Shown: one piece after another, positions 8,280 to 47,580 of the stretch
Numbering within the stretch: the first letter of the stretch is position 1
Layout: every line of letters begins with the position of its first letter
DNA from: a candidate division WOR-3 bacterium
GTDB lineage: Bacteria; Hydrothermota; UBA3072
DNA length: 64,000 bases
Assembly (NCBI GenBank): GCA_016930175.1
Contig: JAFGHJ010000046.1
Coordinates: 1,073-65,072 of the forward strand
Direction: 5' to 3'
The notes under the pieces: model-generated
Databases searched by the model: none
The model's input: the letters and a program-made list of their open reading frames with translations, nothing else
Told to the model about the DNA's origin: nothing
Program-made: the position numbers and the translations under genes

Positions 8280-8307
8280 TTGACTTTTACTATTAAAAAA
8301 CTATTAT
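8280..8307 (+). promoter_or_regulatory. Candidate promoter (TTGACT, 16 nt spacer, TATTAT) driving the cobalamin riboswitch
   Basis: Near-consensus -35/-10 hexamers at 8280-8285 and 8302-8307, immediately upstream of the riboswitch. Confidence 0.45.
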
Positions 8308-8314
8308 AATAATG

Positions 8315-8470
8315 AATAGCTAAGGGAAAGCGGTTAGAATCCGCTACAGCCCCGCTACTGTATTTGGCAACGAAAACTGCCAAGTTACCACTGGATTTAT
8401 TCCGGGAAGGTGCAGTGAGTAGGCCGGCCATAAGTCAGGAGACCTTCTATTTACAAGTACTCCGAGGGGA
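8315..8470 (+). promoter_or_regulatory. Cobalamin (adenosylcobalamin/B12) riboswitch
   Basis: Conserved AGGGAAAGCGGUUAGAAUCC...CAGCCCCGCUACUGU, then GCCACUGG...CGGGAAGG, then the B12 box AAGUCAGGAGACC. These are recalled hallmarks of the cobalamin riboswitch family (Rfam RF00174). A GAGGGGAG Shine-Dalgarno lies directly downstream. Confidence 0.8.
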
Positions 8471-8477
8471 GAAAACA

Positions 8478-8996
8478 ATAGATAAACTAAAAGAAATATC
8501 GTATGTAACAATATTTACAGCATTGGCTTTAGGCTTAGGGTACGCATTTGCACTTATCCCTAATTTTGAGCTTGTTTCTCCTACTGTTTTCCTATCAGGA
8601 GCACTATTTGGTATACGAACAGGTACAATGGTGGGAATTCTCACATATTTTATTTTCGGTTTACTAAATCCTTTTGGTATGTCTCCACTACCTCTGCTCT
8701 TGACACAGGTAATTGTGGGCGCCCTGTTGGGATTATCCGGAGGATTTTGCTATAAAAAAAGATGGAATAAAGCACACGTCATTCTACCTCTAGGCATCTT
8801 AATCACGCTTTTTTCTGATATACTAACTACATCGGCAGGGTTCATTTTATTCCCGACCAAAAAGAGCTTTCTGGCTTACTTTATTCTGGGACTGCCTTTT
8901 GTTATATGGCACGTCTTCACTCAGGGGATAATTTACGGTTTTGTTTTACCCCCAACAATTCAAAAAATCCAAAAAAGAAAAATAAACCACGGATGA
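8478..8996 (+). CDS. B12-riboswitch-controlled small polytopic membrane protein (about 6 TM; possible vitamin-uptake S-component/BtuM-like); start uncertain (ATA 8478 or TTG 8523)
   Basis: The ORF-track ATG at 8364 lies inside the riboswitch aptamer and cannot be the real start. After the aptamer there is no in-frame ATG before TM1. ATA at 8478 lies 6 nt after the GAGGGGAG SD and TTG is at 8523. The product is hydrophobic with glycine-rich TM helices. Confidence 0.55.
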   Translation: MDKLKEISYVTIFTALALGLGYAFALIPNFELVSPTVFLSGALFGIRTGTMVGILTYFIFGLLNPFGMSPLPLLLTQVIVGALLGLSGGFCYKKRWNKAHVILPLGILITLFSDILTTSAGFILFPTKKSFLAYFILGLPFVIWHVFTQGIIYGFVLPPTIQKIQKRKINHG

Positions 8997-9007
8997 ACAC
9001 GGATAAA

Positions 9008-9060
9008 CCCCACCCAACACACAGGAATAGGACGCAGATGAACGCAGATAAGCAGGATTT
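9008..9060 (+). repeat. Repeat copy 1: C-rich tract then GGACGCAGATGAACGCAGAT-AAGCAGGATTT
   Basis: Near-identical to 11301-11360, with one mismatch in the 20-mer core. An additional inverted 8-mer ATCTGCGT sits at 9144-9151. Confidence 0.5.
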
Positions 9061-9180
9061 AATTTTAAGTTGCTTTAATAAAATAAAAGAAACAGTGGAT
9101 CTGGGTGTTAATCTTAATATATCTGAGACAATCTGCGTGCTAATAAAATTTAATCAATGGCTAATTAAAAAGGAGGTTTT

Positions 9181-10920
9181 ATGCTATTAATTATACTAAG
9201 CGTAATGTATTTTGAATCAAAAGGAATAACCGTAACAGCAGACAGATTTGAACATCTCCCCTATCAAGTTGAAGTAATTGAAATTGAAGACATGCTTACA
9301 ATAGATGAATTAGGCGAAATACTGGAAAAAGAAGCAGGAGTTAAAATATACGGAAATGGCGATCCGAGTTCACTAACACAGGCAGCAGTGCACGGATATA
9401 CCGCCAAACATACACTTGTAATGTTAAACGGACATAGAATAAGTGACCCAAAAACAGGCGGATTAGACCTTTCTACATTCCCTTTAAGCGCAGTAAAGAA
9501 AATTGAAATAGTCAAAGGTTCATCTTCGGTATTTCAGGGTTCTAATGCAATTGGTGGGATTATAAACCTTGTTACCGGAAAAGAGACTAATGACATTAAA
9601 TTTCAGGGAAATACGAATTCCGCTTTAGGAGCAAATCTTCAGCTATACAAATTCGGCGTAAACGGAAATTTAAACCTTAAAAAAGGCGAAGGACAGAGGA
9701 GCAATACTGATTTTAAACATTATTCACTAGCTTTTAATTGGAATGATTTAAATTTTACCGGCAGTTATAAAGATCTCGGCGTACCCGGTGCTCTACCAGA
9801 CAGCGGTTTAATTCCAATATTTGGAGATTCAAGCGCAACCTCTCTTTTCGATAACCAGCAAACGCAATTTGCAGACCTCTCGTACAGCAAAATCTTTACG
9901 AACGGGGATATCGGTATACTAATAGAACCCGCAATAACCGGAGAATTGATTAAATATAACTATAAATACTCAGATTTTTTGACGGGAGACGAAATTACGC
10001 AAAACGACGAGTATAAATCCGCTGCAGGTCAATTCAATACAAAATTGTTATACAAAATGTTTACTATATCCATGAATCTTGAGAAAGATAAAGTATGGAT
10101 AGAACAATATAACCCTGGCTACAACAATTCTTTTTCATTTGAAGAGGAAAAAGCAGGAATAGTACTTTCGCTTTTCCATAAAAAGGAAAAGATAAATGTA
10201 TTTGCTTCAGCAAGAGAAGACTGGTACGGAAGCTTTGGATTACATCCATCCTTCACAATAGGAAGCAGAATCACCAGTCCTATCGAGATTTTCGCATCGG
10301 TAGGCTCCGGATTTCAGGCTCCAACACTCTACGATCTTTATTATCCAGACTTTTCTAACGCAGAACTTAAACCCGAACACTCTATCTCGTTAAACGGCGG
10401 ATTTAAAATAAAATACATTACAATCTCCGGATATATAGAGGAAATACATGACAGAATAGCGCTCGACGAAAACTGGCTACCGCAAAATATAGCCAAAAGC
10501 AGAATATTCGGAATCGACATAGAAGCCGACGGAGAATATAAAGACTTATCATATTCATTAATATATTCTTACCTCGACGGATATGACGAAGAAAACCGAA
10601 CAAAAAGAGAACTTCAGCATCAACCAAAACACTCTATCGCGGGTATTCTTTCTTACGAAGGTCCGATATCCGTCGAAGTATCGGGAAAGTGGACAGGAGA
10701 GAGAAAAAGATGGTTCTCGTTCGGAGGATGGAAAATAGAGAACCCTGCTTTCATCATCGATTTAGGAATAAGTAAAACTTTTAATGATTTTTCTGTGGGT
10801 TTTACAGTCGAAAATCTATTAAACACCGAATACATCGCGAGTTTCGGAAGCTCATACACAGACAGGGATTATCCTGGAATGGGAAGATACATAAGTTTTT
10901 GGGGCAAATACTCTTTATAA
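9181..10920 (+). CDS. btuB: TonB-dependent outer-membrane vitamin B12 receptor (BtuB-like)
   Basis: ITVTADRFEH (compare E. coli BtuB TonB box/plug VTANRFEQ), plug motifs LVMLNGHRI and NAIGGIINLVT, a beta-barrel body and a C-terminal aromatic residue. Sits downstream of the B12 riboswitch. AAAGGAGG RBS. Only 15 aa precede the TonB box. Confidence 0.85.
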   Translation: MLLIILSVMYFESKGITVTADRFEHLPYQVEVIEIEDMLTIDELGEILEKEAGVKIYGNGDPSSLTQAAVHGYTAKHTLVMLNGHRISDPKTGGLDLSTFPLSAVKKIEIVKGSSSVFQGSNAIGGIINLVTGKETNDIKFQGNTNSALGANLQLYKFGVNGNLNLKKGEGQRSNTDFKHYSLAFNWNDLNFTGSYKDLGVPGALPDSGLIPIFGDSSATSLFDNQQTQFADLSYSKIFTNGDIGILIEPAITGELIKYNYKYSDFLTGDEITQNDEYKSAAGQFNTKLLYKMFTISMNLEKDKVWIEQYNPGYNNSFSFEEEKAGIVLSLFHKKEKINVFASAREDWYGSFGLHPSFTIGSRITSPIEIFASVGSGFQAPTLYDLYYPDFSNAELKPEHSISLNGGFKIKYITISGYIEEIHDRIALDENWLPQNIAKSRIFGIDIEADGEYKDLSYSLIYSYLDGYDEENRTKRELQHQPKHSIAGILSYEGPISVEVSGKWTGERKRWFSFGGWKIENPAFIIDLGISKTFNDFSVGFTVENLLNTEYIASFGSSYTDRDYPGMGRYISFWGKYSL

Positions 10921-11137
10921 ATCCACATCGCGATTTTAAACGACAAACAACAATGAGTAAATCCGATGAAATGCAAAAATTAAATATTAAAATGTAAAAT
11001 TACAAATTAAAGTTTAAAAATTAAAAAAAAGAGGAAAACTTTGTCGGAGTACTCAACTATAGTTTTCTCTTCTTATCTTTGCATTTTCAAATGTCATTTT
11101 GCTTTTTGATTTTTGATATTTAATTTAATAATGGGGG

Positions 11138-11165
11138 TTGACAAATAATAAAAACCGATTATTAT
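11138..11165 (+). promoter_or_regulatory. Dedicated promoter for the 5S rRNA gene (TTGACA, 16 nt spacer, TATTAT)
   Basis: Consensus hexamers ending about 6 nt before the 5S 5' end. Confidence 0.45.
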
Positions 11166-11170
11166 CTCAT

Positions 11171-11288
11171 TGCTCGGTGGCCATAACGGAGAGGACATAC
11201 CCGTTCCCATTCCGAACACGGAAGTCAAGCTCTCCTGTGCTTATGGTATTGCCCTTTCGGGGGTGAGAGAGTAGGTCGCTGCCGGGCT
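11171..11288 (+). rRNA. rrf: 5S ribosomal RNA (stand-alone; no 16S or 23S in this window)
   Basis: UGCUCGGUGGCCAUAACGGAGAGG...CCGAACACGGAAGUCAAGC...GAGAGUAGGUCGCUGCCGGGCU matches universal 5S motifs. Followed by a T-run (11289-11300). Confidence 0.9.
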
Positions 11289-11300
11289 TTTTTATTTTTA

Positions 11301-11360
11301 CCCCCACCCCACCCCAGTAACTGGACGCAGATTAACGCAGATCAGAAAGGATTTTTATTC
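11301..11360 (+). repeat. Repeat copy 2: CCCCCACCCCACCCC tract then GGACGCAGATTAACGCAGAT-CAGAAAGGATTTTT
   Basis: Direct repeat of 9008-9060. Forms a perfect 20 bp inverted repeat with 11836-11855. Confidence 0.5.
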
Positions 11361-11487
11361 TATATTTTTAAGAACTTTCACTAAATGAAATTCTCGACAA
11401 TAAATATAAATTACTTAAACTTAACAAAAAAAATAACATAATTATTTTACGGATATTCAAGAAGCCATTCAAAAAGCCGAAAAATTA

Positions 11488-11826
11488 ATGCCGGGTATTA
11501 CTGCAATAAAAGGAGATATTGATCCCCGATGGCAAGCTATTATCGATATCAGTGTATATATAGAATCAAATCCAAAAGAAATATGGGATTTTGTTGTTCG
11601 TTGGGGCCAACATGAAGACGAAAATATACGTAATGCTATTTCAACTTGCCTTTTAGAACACCTTCTTGAATATCATTTCAAACAAATTTTTCCGAAAGTT
11701 GAGGAATTAGTCCGTAAAAGTAGACTGTTTGCTAATACATTCTGTAAATGTTGGAAATTCGGACAATCCGAGGAACCGGAAAACTCAATTAAAATTGATC
11801 AACTTAAAAAAGAATTTTGTTCTTAA
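11488..11826 (+). CDS. Hypothetical small protein (112 aa) enclosed by 20 bp perfect inverted repeats
   Basis: ORF MPGITAIKGDIDPRWQAI...CLLEHLLEYHF... with no recognisable family. Flanked by GGACGCAGATTAACGCAGAT at 11323-11342 and its reverse complement at 11836-11855. Confidence 0.45.
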   Translation: MPGITAIKGDIDPRWQAIIDISVYIESNPKEIWDFVVRWGQHEDENIRNAISTCLLEHLLEYHFKQIFPKVEELVRKSRLFANTFCKCWKFGQSEEPENSIKIDQLKKEFCS

Positions 11827-11831
11827 ATTCT

Positions 11832-11858
11832 GAAAATCTGCGTTAATCTGCGTCCCAA
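11832..11858 (-). repeat. Repeat copy 3 (inverted): reverse complement of GGACGCAGATTAACGCAGAT
   Basis: ATCTGCGTTAATCTGCGTCC at 11836-11855 is the reverse complement of 11323-11342. Lies between the small ORF and the asnA 3' end. Confidence 0.5.
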
Positions 11859-12908
11859 TTAAAGCAAAAAGATATTATTTTTCTCGCAGGCCCGGACCAT
11901 CTCATCCGGCCACACACCGCATTGAACTTCCCCGATATGCGCTTTCTGAAGAAACAGCATACAAAGACGGGATTGCCCAATCCCGCCACCTATTGAAAGA
12001 GGTAATCTACCTTCTAAAAGCATTTTATGCCACATCAATTCTTTCCTATCAAGAGTATCTGTAATTTCAAGCTGTCTAAGCAAAGATTCTTTATCGACTC
12101 TTATACCCATAGAAGAGATTTCAAAACCTATCTCCAAAACAGGATTCCAAACAAAAATATCACCATTTAACCCTTTGGTATTTTCACCTGTAGGCGTGGT
12201 CCAATCATCATAATCCGGAGCTCTTCCATCGTGCGGTTTGCCATCTGCCAATTCACCACCTATACCAATGACAAAAACAGCTCCTTTCTCTTTTGTTATA
12301 GCATCTTCCCTATCTCTCGGGTTAAGTTCAGGATACCTTTCCTGTAATTCTTCGCTGTGTATAAAAGATATTTCATCACGGAGGAATGGCTGTAACTGGG
12401 GAAATTTTTTATAAACAACCAGTTCCGTTTCTTTCAAAACTTCATATATTTTTCTTACTATATTTTTTAGAAAATCTAAATTTCTTTCTTCTTTAGATAT
12501 TACCCTCTCCCAATCCCATTGATCTACATAAACAGAGTGCAAATTATCTAAAACCTCGTCTCTTCTAATGGCGTTCATATCAGTATATAAACCACTGCCT
12601 TCCGTAAAGCCATATCTGGCTAAAGCTAATCTCTTCCATTTCGCAAGAGATTGAACAATCTCGGCTTCCACATTGGATATATTTTTCAAATCAAAAGAAA
12701 CCGGTCTCTCGATTCCGTTAAGATCATCGTTAATTCCGGTACCGGCAGCTACAAATAAAGGAGCGCTGACTCTTTGCAAATTCAATTGATTCGCAAGCTC
12801 TACTTCGAAGCAGTCTTTAACTAATTTAATTGCTTCTTCAGTCTCTTTCAAATCTAAATGATTAACATAGTTCTTCGGAATTTTCAAATCCATTCCATCC
12901 TCCTCCAC
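11859..12908 (-). CDS. asnA: Aspartate--ammonia ligase (asparagine synthetase A)
   Basis: Strong matches to recalled AsnA sequence: SLAKWKRLALARYGF, LHSVYVDQWDWERVI, SSMGIRVD, GGGIGQSRLCMLFLQ. The start may instead be the internal Met 5 codons downstream. Confidence 0.9.
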   Translation of the reverse strand: MEEDGMDLKIPKNYVNHLDLKETEEAIKLVKDCFEVELANQLNLQRVSAPLFVAAGTGINDDLNGIERPVSFDLKNISNVEAEIVQSLAKWKRLALARYGFTEGSGLYTDMNAIRRDEVLDNLHSVYVDQWDWERVISKEERNLDFLKNIVRKIYEVLKETELVVYKKFPQLQPFLRDEISFIHSEELQERYPELNPRDREDAITKEKGAVFVIGIGGELADGKPHDGRAPDYDDWTTPTGENTKGLNGDIFVWNPVLEIGFEISSMGIRVDKESLLRQLEITDTLDRKELMWHKMLLEGRLPLSIGGGIGQSRLCMLFLQKAHIGEVQCGVWPDEMVRACEKNNIFLL

Positions 12909-36630: not shown

Positions 36631-36770
36631 ACTAATAATATAAATACTTTCAGCTTAAAAGTCAAGGTTATAAATAATTAGTGAAAACCTATTAAAGTAA
36701 TACTTTTTATTTATTTTTCTGCTAAAAGATACATAAATAAGAAATTATATAAGTATTTTGCTATAGGGGC

Positions 36771-36798
36771 TTGACTTATCTATTTAGAAAGTTAAAAT
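36771..36798 (+). promoter_or_regulatory. Promoter for ssrA (TTGACT, 16 nt spacer, TAAAAT)
   Basis: Hexamers at 36771-36776 and 36793-36798, about 10 nt before the tmRNA 5' GGGGG. Confidence 0.45.
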
Positions 36799-36808
36799 AG
36801 ATATATAC

Positions 36809-37156
36809 GGGGGCGAATTGGCTCTCGACGGGATACAACTGGATTGTAAGCTGCATGCCGAGCTGCCATAGCTCGAAAAACTATGGTATTTGTAATAAAT
36901 GGCAACTATAATTATGCCATGGCAGCTTAATTAAGCTGCTCGTCCTTTCCGGACGTTTTCTTCTTACTCCGGATGTGGGCGTCATAGAAAGAAGATAGGT
37001 TGCAATTTTGCCAGGGTTTTGCAGCCGAATAAAGACTGGCTTGGTTATTCTGATTCCTGTGATTGGGTAAAGAATAGCGACACTTAAACAATCACTAAGC
37101 ATGTAGAAGTTTTCAAACAGGTATTTCGGACGCGGGTTCGATTCCCGCCGCCTCCA
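36809..37156 (+). ncRNA. ssrA: tmRNA (SsrA); tag reading frame 36901-36930 encodes (A)GNYNYAMAA then stop
   Basis: 5' GGGGGCGAAUUGGCUCUCGACGGG and 3' GGACGCGGGUUCGAUUCCCGCCGCCUCCA form a 7 bp acceptor stem plus T-arm, with CCA not encoded. The internal ORF GGC AAC TAT AAT TAT GCC ATG GCA GCT TAA is followed by UUAAGCUGC, paralleling E. coli GCAGCUUAAUAACCUGC. Confidence 0.9.
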
Positions 37157-37180
37157 GTAAAACAAAACAGAGGAGGAATT

Positions 37181-46458: not shown

Positions 46459-47580
46459 TTGACATTTAACACATATCCACATATAATCATTTTATATATG
46501 GAGGTTTATGTGAGATCATTAAAATTATATATTATTATTTCACTTTTTGTTATTTTCTTTAATCTATCAGCTCAAATCGTAATCGAATCGGATGAGATAC
46601 CGCATGAGGTCGGTATTCATTGGATAAAAAACAGTTCAATAGAAGTTAACGTTAATCTCGGAACAACAGGTGGACCTCAAACCTGGGATTTTACATCTCA
46701 ACCTATGGGCGCTGAAAACAGTTATCTCACAATTGTTGATCCTGCTTCCAGTCCTTATATAGACTCACTTCCAAGCGCAAATCTTGTTTACCGGTCACCT
46801 TCAGATTCTGATACTGTTTACCAGTATTATAATCGCAATTCTGATTTTTTAATAATGTTGGGTATGGGAGGAATATCCACCACTACACCTTTCTTCTGGA
46901 GATACGAACCAACAGATTCAATCCCATCCCCTCAAAGCTATGGAAATTCACATAGATTCAGATATGGATTTACTGAAACGATAAGTCCAGGCAATTATAT
47001 GGAATATTTCCATTATGGTATTCAGAAATATGATGCCTTCGGAACCGTTAATATACCTTATGGCATTTATGAATGCCTGCGTATTCGCACTTACGATACC
47101 TGTGCTATGATAATGTATTTTAGCGATATTCCAATTCTTTACGATACGACAACTTATATAAATTACCAATTCGTGGCAGAAAATTATGCAGCCGTAGTCT
47201 GTGTTAAGAGTCATCCAGACGAAATAGACACAAATTATTCTGAAGCCTATATACTTGAGAGACTAACATCATTTACGAGTGGCATTAAAGAACACGGCAA
47301 ACCAACAGATATAGAATGCACGCACTATCCACAGATATTTTCAGACTATACTACAATACAATATTCTTTACCGGAAACGTATAATATAGAGTTAACAGTA
47401 CATGACCTAACAGGAAGAACTGTAAGAAAACTGGTTAAAAATACCCAAGAGAAAGGGAATTATTTATGTAAATGGTACGGAAATAATGACGCCGGCAAAA
47501 AACTCTCCAGTGGAATATATTTTTACCGATTAAAAGTTGGAAACAATAAATTTACTAATAAGGTCTTATTAATACGGTAA
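46459..47580 (+). CDS. Secreted protein of unknown function with a type IX secretion C-terminal sorting domain
   Basis: Signal peptide and C-terminal YSLPETYNIELTVHDLTGRTVRKLV...SGIYFYRLKVGNNKFTNKVLLIR (Por_Secre_tail pattern). Confidence 0.7.
   Translation: MTFNTYPHIIILYMEVYVRSLKLYIIISLFVIFFNLSAQIVIESDEIPHEVGIHWIKNSSIEVNVNLGTTGGPQTWDFTSQPMGAENSYLTIVDPASSPYIDSLPSANLVYRSPSDSDTVYQYYNRNSDFLIMLGMGGISTTTPFFWRYEPTDSIPSPQSYGNSHRFRYGFTETISPGNYMEYFHYGIQKYDAFGTVNIPYGIYECLRIRTYDTCAMIMYFSDIPILYDTTTYINYQFVAENYAAVVCVKSHPDEIDTNYSEAYILERLTSFTSGIKEHGKPTDIECTHYPQIFSDYTTIQYSLPETYNIELTVHDLTGRTVRKLVKNTQEKGNYLCKWYGNNDAGKKLSSGIYFYRLKVGNNKFTNKVLLIR

Follow-up and report, generated by a model that had tools for sequence, protein, structure and literature searches.

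A 5S ribosomal RNA (rRNA) gene standing alone among protein-coding genes was analysed in a stretch of 64,000 nt (the window) from contig JAFGHJ010000046.1 of a candidate division WOR-3 bacterium (assembly GCA_016930175.1), where it follows btuB, a gene for a TonB-dependent receptor resembling those for vitamin B12, on the same strand. The reading favoured here, with a probability of about 0.72, is that of a functional 5S gene forming a self-contained transcription unit of ~165 nt, with its own promoter and T-run, held at a fixed site and inherited vertically across a WOR-3-like clade.

A full-length 5S rRNA gene at a conserved site

The 5S gene at 11173–11287 (+) matched Rfam model RF00001 with 90.7 bits (gathering score 38; E-value 3.4e-18) over model positions 1–120 and without truncation, in agreement to within 2 nt with the extent of 11171–11288 proposed in a preliminary reading of the window (hereafter the original prediction); the mature RNA probably runs from ~11171/11172 to ~11288. 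The copies in related contigs scored 79–91 bits with the same model, a single copy clipped by a contig end giving 67.5 bits. Over 14 distinct sequences, the 34 pairs of the canonical 5S structure were paired in 99.2% of cases, as compared with 34–51% in slid controls. Pairs were counted on a structure derived from Rfam in which helix IV had been redrawn about the UUCG loop; de novo folding with RNAalifold did not recover the canonical helices II and III. Compensatory changes were present at two helix IV pairs (UA/CG, 12:2; CG/UA/UG, 7:6:1), and locus L146 showed an additional change in helix III, from C-G to U-A. Because the fold is 99.2% paired and includes compensatory pairs, the gene is regarded as a working one, and it is genuine, full-length and intact. 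That it could be a pseudogene undergoing decay, or an artefact of assembly, for which the unusual context and nothing else would speak, is barely credible in view of the full-length match, the intact and compensated pairs and the recovery of the same arrangement in independent assemblies from NCBI, ENA, JGI and Logan. The 5S in these metagenome-assembled genomes (MAGs) can be taken as a real chromosomal marker and not as contamination.

The comparison covered 30 related and mutually independent contigs, of which seven were recovered by scanning genomes for a 33-nt 5S core (among the matches listed), 21 from a metagenome scan using a lineage-specific 5S pattern as query, and two were contigs carrying CarB homologues. 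The 33-nt core is identical in Treponema, and 112 of the 119 loci among the genome-scan matches listed were from outside the lineage and were kept as controls. In tblastn searches, all 30 relatives showed, over the sequence available at each locus, a single arrangement: dxr, rseP, riboswitch, orfA, btuB, 5S and a variable stretch, with asnA, carB and carA following on the opposite strand. btuB lies 5' of the 5S on the same strand at 29 of the 30 loci, the other (L124) being a contig without upstream sequence; the gap from the btuB stop codon to the 5S ranges between 47 and 466 nt, and the distance from the 5S to asnA between 24 nt and 7.9 kb. These relatives share 81–96% identity with the window in CarB and ~70–86% in BtuB. 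Metagenome homologues of CarB showed 91–96% identity, the closest named sequences being from candidate division WOR-3 MAGs (80–84%), and the WOR-3-labelled NCBI MAG GCA_034658955.1 carries the same locus. Exact matches to the window proteins were found in Logan run SRR13394437 only. An assignment to Leptospira, which the low G+C content, the TonB receptor and the unlinked 5S might suggest, was rejected in view of these CarB neighbours and protein matches. In a more distant WOR-3 MAG (CarB 80%) the synteny was absent, with no 5S near carB. Since the position of the 5S is fixed down to 81% identity in CarB and ~70% in BtuB, the arrangement is considered old and vertically inherited.

Conservation around the gene was confined to a narrow block, outside which the DNA could hardly be aligned at all. 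The mean pairwise identity was 0.37 in the upstream segment from −110 to −46, 0.75 in the promoter segment (−45 to −1), 0.94 in the 5S itself, 0.88 in the T-run (+1 to +12) and 0.33 further downstream (+13 to +60). This sharp drop beyond the promoter and beyond the T-run indicates selection on a block of ~165 nt bounded by the two. Taken together, the comparative sequence evidence points to a 5S unit that is functional, self-contained and ancestral, and that is no recent arrival.

A proposed dedicated promoter ahead of the 5S gene

A consensus scan located TTGACA-16-TATTAT at 11138–11165, matching 11 of 12 sigma-70 consensus positions, so that the promoter sequence named in the original prediction is indeed present. 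Positions 11133–11143 (+) hold a G-run and, after it, the −35 hexamer TTGACA (11138–11143), and the −10 hexamer TATTAT (11160–11165, +) lies 16 nt past the −35 and, as in all relatives, 7 nt ahead of CTCGG. The promoter was retained in each of 21 distinct promoter-plus-5S haplotypes, which show the same TTGACA (preceded by GGGG in most), a spacer of 16 nt in every case and a distance of exactly 7 nt between the −10 and CTCGG; the −10 itself varies among the relatives as TATTAT, TATAAT, TAATAT or TATTAA. These 21 haplotypes provide unusually clean comparative evidence for a dedicated promoter. The predicted transcription start is the G at position 11172 (+), 7 nt after the −10, which would open helix I by pairing with C11287. 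The proposed near-consensus sigma-70 promoter, comprising the G-run, TTGACA, 16-nt spacer and TATTAT, would thus start transcription at the first base of the closing helix.

Promoters of this type are in general use by the organism, the window holding 13 sites with at least 11 of 12 consensus positions as compared with 3.6 ± 2.1 in shuffled sequences. A perfect TTGACA-17-TATAAT occurs at 46459–46487, and further near-consensus sites at 641, 17436, 20217 and 61500 adjoin gene starts. In the 5S copies from outside the lineage (among the matches listed), the promoter motif was found in the 45 nt upstream of none of 45. The promoter is therefore the lineage-specific part of the 5S unit, the 3' T-run being ordinary. 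A related layout was observed at the transfer-messenger RNA (tmRNA) gene of the window (36809–37159; tag peptide GNYNYAMAA), where GGGGC-TTGACT-17-TAAAAT ends ~10 nt before the mature 5' end (36767–36809). The G-run-plus-promoter layout common to tmRNA and 5S suggests a shared promoter design for the stable RNAs of this organism.

The T-run and the 3' end

The T-run noted after the gene in the original prediction was found as TTTTTTATTTTT at 11288–11299 (+), a presumed intrinsic termination site that abuts helix I of the 5S directly. All relatives with 3' sequence end in GGGC followed by T6–7, A and T3–4. Helix I consists of 10 bp (seven G-C and three G-U) with U6AU5 immediately 3' of it, and was present in both the minimum free energy and the centroid folds. 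The 5S thus shows the G+C-rich stem and immediate U-tract expected of an intrinsic terminator, and helix I with the T-run probably works like one, without being a canonical one. In the mechanism proposed, the 10-bp closing helix would serve as the terminator stem and the T-run would halt RNA polymerase; with the start site placed as above, the primary transcript would be approximately equal to the mature 5S and would need little or no trimming of its ends.

A T-run directly following the 5S was also seen in 103 of 110 copies from outside the lineage, mostly from Treponema (among the matches listed), and this 3' architecture presumably goes back to an ancestor with the 5S at the end of an operon. 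The presence of the T-run after the 5S in Treponema and related MAGs suggests that in these bacteria transcription of the entire rRNA operon is commonly terminated with helix I as the stem.

An alternative source of the 5S would be transcription from further upstream. In clades with a 47-nt gap between btuB and the 5S there is no room for a separate btuB terminator, which implies that riboswitch-controlled transcripts read into the 5S; where the btuB stop touches the promoter, btuB transcripts would run into the 5S and would presumably end at its T-run. It could accordingly be supposed that the 5S is mainly the 3' end of an orfA-btuB transcript under the control of the B12 riboswitch, released by RNase cleavage, with the promoter motif of secondary importance. 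The common strand of btuB and 5S in all relatives with upstream sequence, the gap of only 47 nt in many of them and the lack of a convincing terminator between the two genes in the window are compatible with such a source. Reliance of a housekeeping rRNA on a B12-repressed transcript is implausible, however, and both hexamers, the 16-nt spacer between them and the 7-nt distance to the 5S have been kept while their surroundings diverged, as selection on a promoter predicts. RNase release from the btuB transcript as the principal source of 5S is therefore judged rather improbable. Some 5S could arise by btuB read-through, with the conserved promoter arguing against this being the main route.

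Linkage to 16S and 23S rRNA genes and copy number

Rfam and other RNA scans of the 64-kb window detected no 16S, 23S or tRNA gene, as the original prediction had stated for 16S and 23S, and the only RNAs other than the 5S were the tmRNA and a cobalamin riboswitch (8281–8465). No rRNA remnants were found at E ≤ 1 between 8000 and 13000. Likewise, scans at Rfam gathering thresholds of 28 related loci (~264 kb) gave one 5S each and no 16S, 23S or tRNA. In L143 and L146 the 5S is flanked by btuB, asnA and other protein genes, leaving no space for a 23S gene. The sarcin-ricin motif of 23S was found within 700 nt upstream of none of 26 lineage 5S genes versus 7 of 12 control 5S copies from outside the lineage (among the matches listed), the latter serving as a positive control for 23S linkage. 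Many of the non-lineage copies (L002–L120) lie at contig ends, as expected of collapsed rRNA operons. The description of a stand-alone 5S with a dedicated promoter after btuB is upheld by these comparisons, the unit being kept in the 21 haplotypes and no related contig showing a 23S upstream; a 23S gene lost from this contig through misassembly, which the original prediction had named as the circumstance that would overturn it, does not agree with the presence of btuB at that place in the related assemblies.

The gene might be an orphan extra copy, with one or more canonical 16S-23S-5S operons elsewhere in the genome supplying most of the 5S. rRNA operons are often absent from short-read MAGs, so that their absence is weak evidence. 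In none of the 28 contigs matching the lineage-specific 5S (seven from genomes, among the matches listed, and 21 from metagenomes) does the 5S lie beside a 23S gene, all 28 showing the btuB context instead. The 21 metagenome contigs with a lineage 5S are also close in number to the 19 clusters of the single-copy CarB (at least 91% identity), and strong purifying selection together with an invariant promoter fits an essential gene better than a spare. An orphan copy would have ample precedent, since rRNA gene numbers are unequal in 23.6% of bacterial genome entries, in most cases because of additional 5S genes (PMC2686494). On balance an orphan copy is considered unlikely, and the 5S described here is probably the main or only 5S of the genome.

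Several points weigh against the self-contained unit as proposed. A second, diverged and 23S-linked 5S may lie elsewhere in the genome, given the frequent loss of rRNA operons from MAGs. The putative terminator is non-canonical in that its stem encloses the remaining ~95 nt of the 5S and lacks the short loop (3–8 nt) of a standard terminator hairpin, and a consensus terminator scan made no call at the 5S T-run. A T-run abutting the 5S is moreover ordinary and not a special adaptation, because 103 of 110 Treponema-type copies carry it. The A+T-rich phased T-tract upstream of the promoter (11097–11132, +; Tandem Repeats Finder period 7, TTTTGAT × 4.3), a possible upstream (UP) element, is kept in part of the clade only, its place being taken elsewhere by btuB coding sequence; as judged from this variation, it is no essential UP element. 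Finally, promoter activity and strength, the exact start site and the point of termination are predictions from sequence alone.

A wider proposal, which is a tentative one, would make the gene the sole 5S of the genome, free of processing, with initiation at the mature 5' end and release at the T-run through its closing helix, and hence a bacterial counterpart to the 5S gene that RNA polymerase III transcribes in eukaryotes. The 5S and T-run would double as the terminator of the riboswitch-controlled orfA-btuB operon, and the variable stretch downstream (24 nt to 7.9 kb), bordered by ACGCAGAT repeats, would be a hotspot for accessory genes.

Repeats and the variable region

The original prediction had pointed to repeat elements on both sides of the 5S and taken them as a sign that the gene arrived by recombination. 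The repeats exist, as low-complexity tracts and as a short intergenic element, the latter not being specific to the 5S. The low-complexity tandem tracts comprise AAAAATT × 7.7 (10975–11027), TTTTGAT × 4.3 (11097–11126) and CCCCA × 3 (11302–11316). Only one direct repeat brackets the 5S, a T-rich match of 14 nt between 11101–11114 and 11286–11299 (two matches of this kind versus 0.38 expected; equalled in 4 of 100 shuffles), and a window-wide repeat search found no longer repeat family at the 5S locus beyond low complexity.

The short intergenic element (ACGCAGATNAACGCAGAT) is made up of a C-rich tract and, after it, two 10-mers in tandem, ACGCAGATNA ACGCAGAT, and has three copies in the window, at 9008–9060 (+), 11300–11352 (+) and 11856–11836 (−), all less than 3 kb from the 5S. 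The copy at 11300–11352 (+), a C-rich tract with tandem ACGCAGATTA/ACGCAGATCA, opens the variable region. In the relatives the element follows rseP, the 5S, asnA and carB and is oriented like the gene before it, and in the window a copy also follows orfA; it was found in L132, L125, L122, L113, L127, L138, L140, L142 and others. Because it follows many gene ends lineage-wide, the element is no sign of 5S mobility. In other clades, different CAGAT-type repeats with a 10-nt period occupy the same place. The element could be a repetitive extragenic palindromic (REP)-like sequence or a protein-binding site.

Recent arrival of the 5S by recombination or on a mobile element would thus have in its favour the 14-nt direct repeat bracketing the unit, the copies of the ~50-nt intergenic element bracketing btuB and the 5S (9008–9060 and 11300–11352), and the variability of the stretch 3' of the 5S. 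Against this, the T-rich match is no more than chance would produce in such A+T-rich DNA, and the intergenic element is general to the intergenic DNA of the lineage. Patchy presence, target-site duplications and recombinase genes, by which a mobile or inserted element would be recognized, were not found at the 5S locus, and there was no integrase or transposase among the locus proteins. Above all, 30 relatives with CarB identities as low as 81% have the gene at exactly this place, and this fixed synteny rules out a recent arrival; the interpretation of the repeats given in the original prediction is accordingly abandoned as very improbable in favour of an ancestral, vertically inherited unit.

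The stretch between 5S and asnA (11288–11858 in the window) is hypervariable, similarity to the closest relative among the matches listed (L085) stopping at ~11355. Its cargo is unrelated between relatives and includes a repeat-rich surface protein of 2328 aa that probably carries a type IX secretion system (T9SS) C-terminal signal, a PadR protein, a radical SAM/SPASM protein, DUF1353 and other domains of unknown function (DUFs), a pentapeptide-repeat ion-channel protein and a CAAX protease. Integrases and defence genes were sought in this stretch of the relatives and none was found, the unrelated cargo being all that was present. The btuB-5S-asnA junction provides a stable anchor for studying this adjacent variable region.

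Comparison with known detached 5S rRNA genes

The original prediction described an unlinked 5S with a dedicated promoter as uncommon, which is fair, with the qualification that the kind is already known (PMC2686494, PMC2229662, PMC4342427, PMC8339473). In Leptospira the rRNA genes are unlinked (PMC2229662), each under its own promoter (PMC2686494), and the present case resembles Leptospira rrf in being a bacterial 5S alone among protein-coding genes. It differs in belonging to a WOR-3-like lineage and not to the spirochaetes and in having different neighbours, so that no homology of the flanks is implied; moreover, 16S, 23S and 5S are all known to be dispersed in Leptospira, whereas here, within the window and the retrieved loci, only the 5S was seen detached. 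Mycoplasma hominis has two 16S-23S operons and two unlinked 5S genes (PMC4342427), and shares with the present case a detached 5S alongside large rRNAs that may stay linked. By analogy, the M. hominis layout would be the most likely one here if 16S and 23S lie together. Unlike M. hominis, which is a host-associated mollicute with a reduced genome, the bacteria studied here form a sediment/metagenome lineage in which promoter and synteny are conserved across many species-level relatives.

Stand-alone 5S genes have also been described in Crenarchaeota/TACK, Thermoplasma and Nanoarchaeum (PMC8339473, PMC2686494). They resemble the present gene in their physical separation and independent transcription, the latter being predicted here, and differ in using archaeal promoters and an archaeal polymerase in place of a bacterial sigma-70-type promoter. 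Eukaryotic 5S genes are transcribed by RNA polymerase III from the mature 5' end to a T-run immediately past the mature 3' end. The likeness lies in a primary transcript approximately equal to the mature RNA, which on the bacterial side is a prediction, and the analogy is functional and not evolutionary; the eukaryotic gene has an internal promoter and a different polymerase. With the operon-terminal 5S of the Treponema type (among the matches listed), the gene shares the T-run after helix I (103 of 110), the identical 33-nt core and ~80–83% identity overall, and contrasts with it in that those copies, where they have upstream sequence, follow 23S (sarcin-ricin motif in 7 of 12) and lack the promoter motif (0 of 45).

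A large survey of unlinked rRNA genes (preprint 10.1101/705046) deals with 16S-23S linkage only and never mentions 5S, so that the frequency of 5S detachment in bacteria is poorly charted, and our literature search found no description of rRNA gene order in WOR-3. The detached 5S described here overturns nothing already known; with it, a free-living and uncultured lineage of a candidate phylum joins the few bacteria in which a detached 5S has been described. In practical terms, completeness checks of MAGs that expect 5S beside 23S will misjudge this clade.

Neighbouring genes in the window

Upstream of the 5S the window carries rplM, rpsI, rpsB, tsf, pyrH, frr, uppS, cdsA, dxr, rseP, the B12 riboswitch, orfA and btuB; downstream lie a small DUF6869-like open reading frame (ORF) and then asnA, carB and carA on the opposite strand. 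The cobalamin riboswitch (8281–8465, +; Rfam RF00174, 90.3 bits) heads the orfA-btuB unit, and in the relatives a distance of 2.4–2.9 kb separates it from the 5S, which follows on the same strand. btuB (9181–10920, +) encodes a BtuB-like TonB-dependent receptor of 579 aa, confirming the upstream neighbour given in the original prediction; its best matches are B12 receptor models (TIGR01779, 3.4e-42, and PRK10641), both below their cut-offs. An AT-rich imperfect palindrome at 10965–11126, considered as a btuB terminator or structured element, was rejected (fold z = −1.5, unconserved). Downstream, asnA (11859–12908, −; TIGR00669, 1.3e-130) is convergent with the 5S and is followed by carB and carA.

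The small DUF6869-like ORF (11488–11826, +; Pfam PF21746, E-value 1.8e-5, below the cut-off) has no homologue at the locus of any relative. On either side of it lie the arms of a perfect 20-nt inverted repeat, GGACGCAGATTAACGCAGAT, at 11322–11342 (+) and 11856–11836 (−), and ORF and repeat may together represent a small inserted cassette.

orfA (8514–8996, +; start codon uncertain) encodes a membrane protein of ~150 aa resembling the S component of energy-coupling factor (ECF) transporters (Pfam PF12822, E-value 3.1e-5, below the cut-off); it is 78–92% identical among relatives, is annotated as ECF_trnsprt in L146 and invariably occupies the position between the cobalamin riboswitch and btuB. 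In most relatives orfA directly adjoins or overlaps btuB, and the 185-nt spacer between the two genes in the window (8997–9180), which holds the intergenic repeat element and a partial inverted copy (9129–9138), looks like an insertion of the element and yields a spurious ORF at 8906–9190. An ECF S component, to which the resemblance is weak, and a TonB-dependent receptor under one B12 riboswitch make an unusual pairing.

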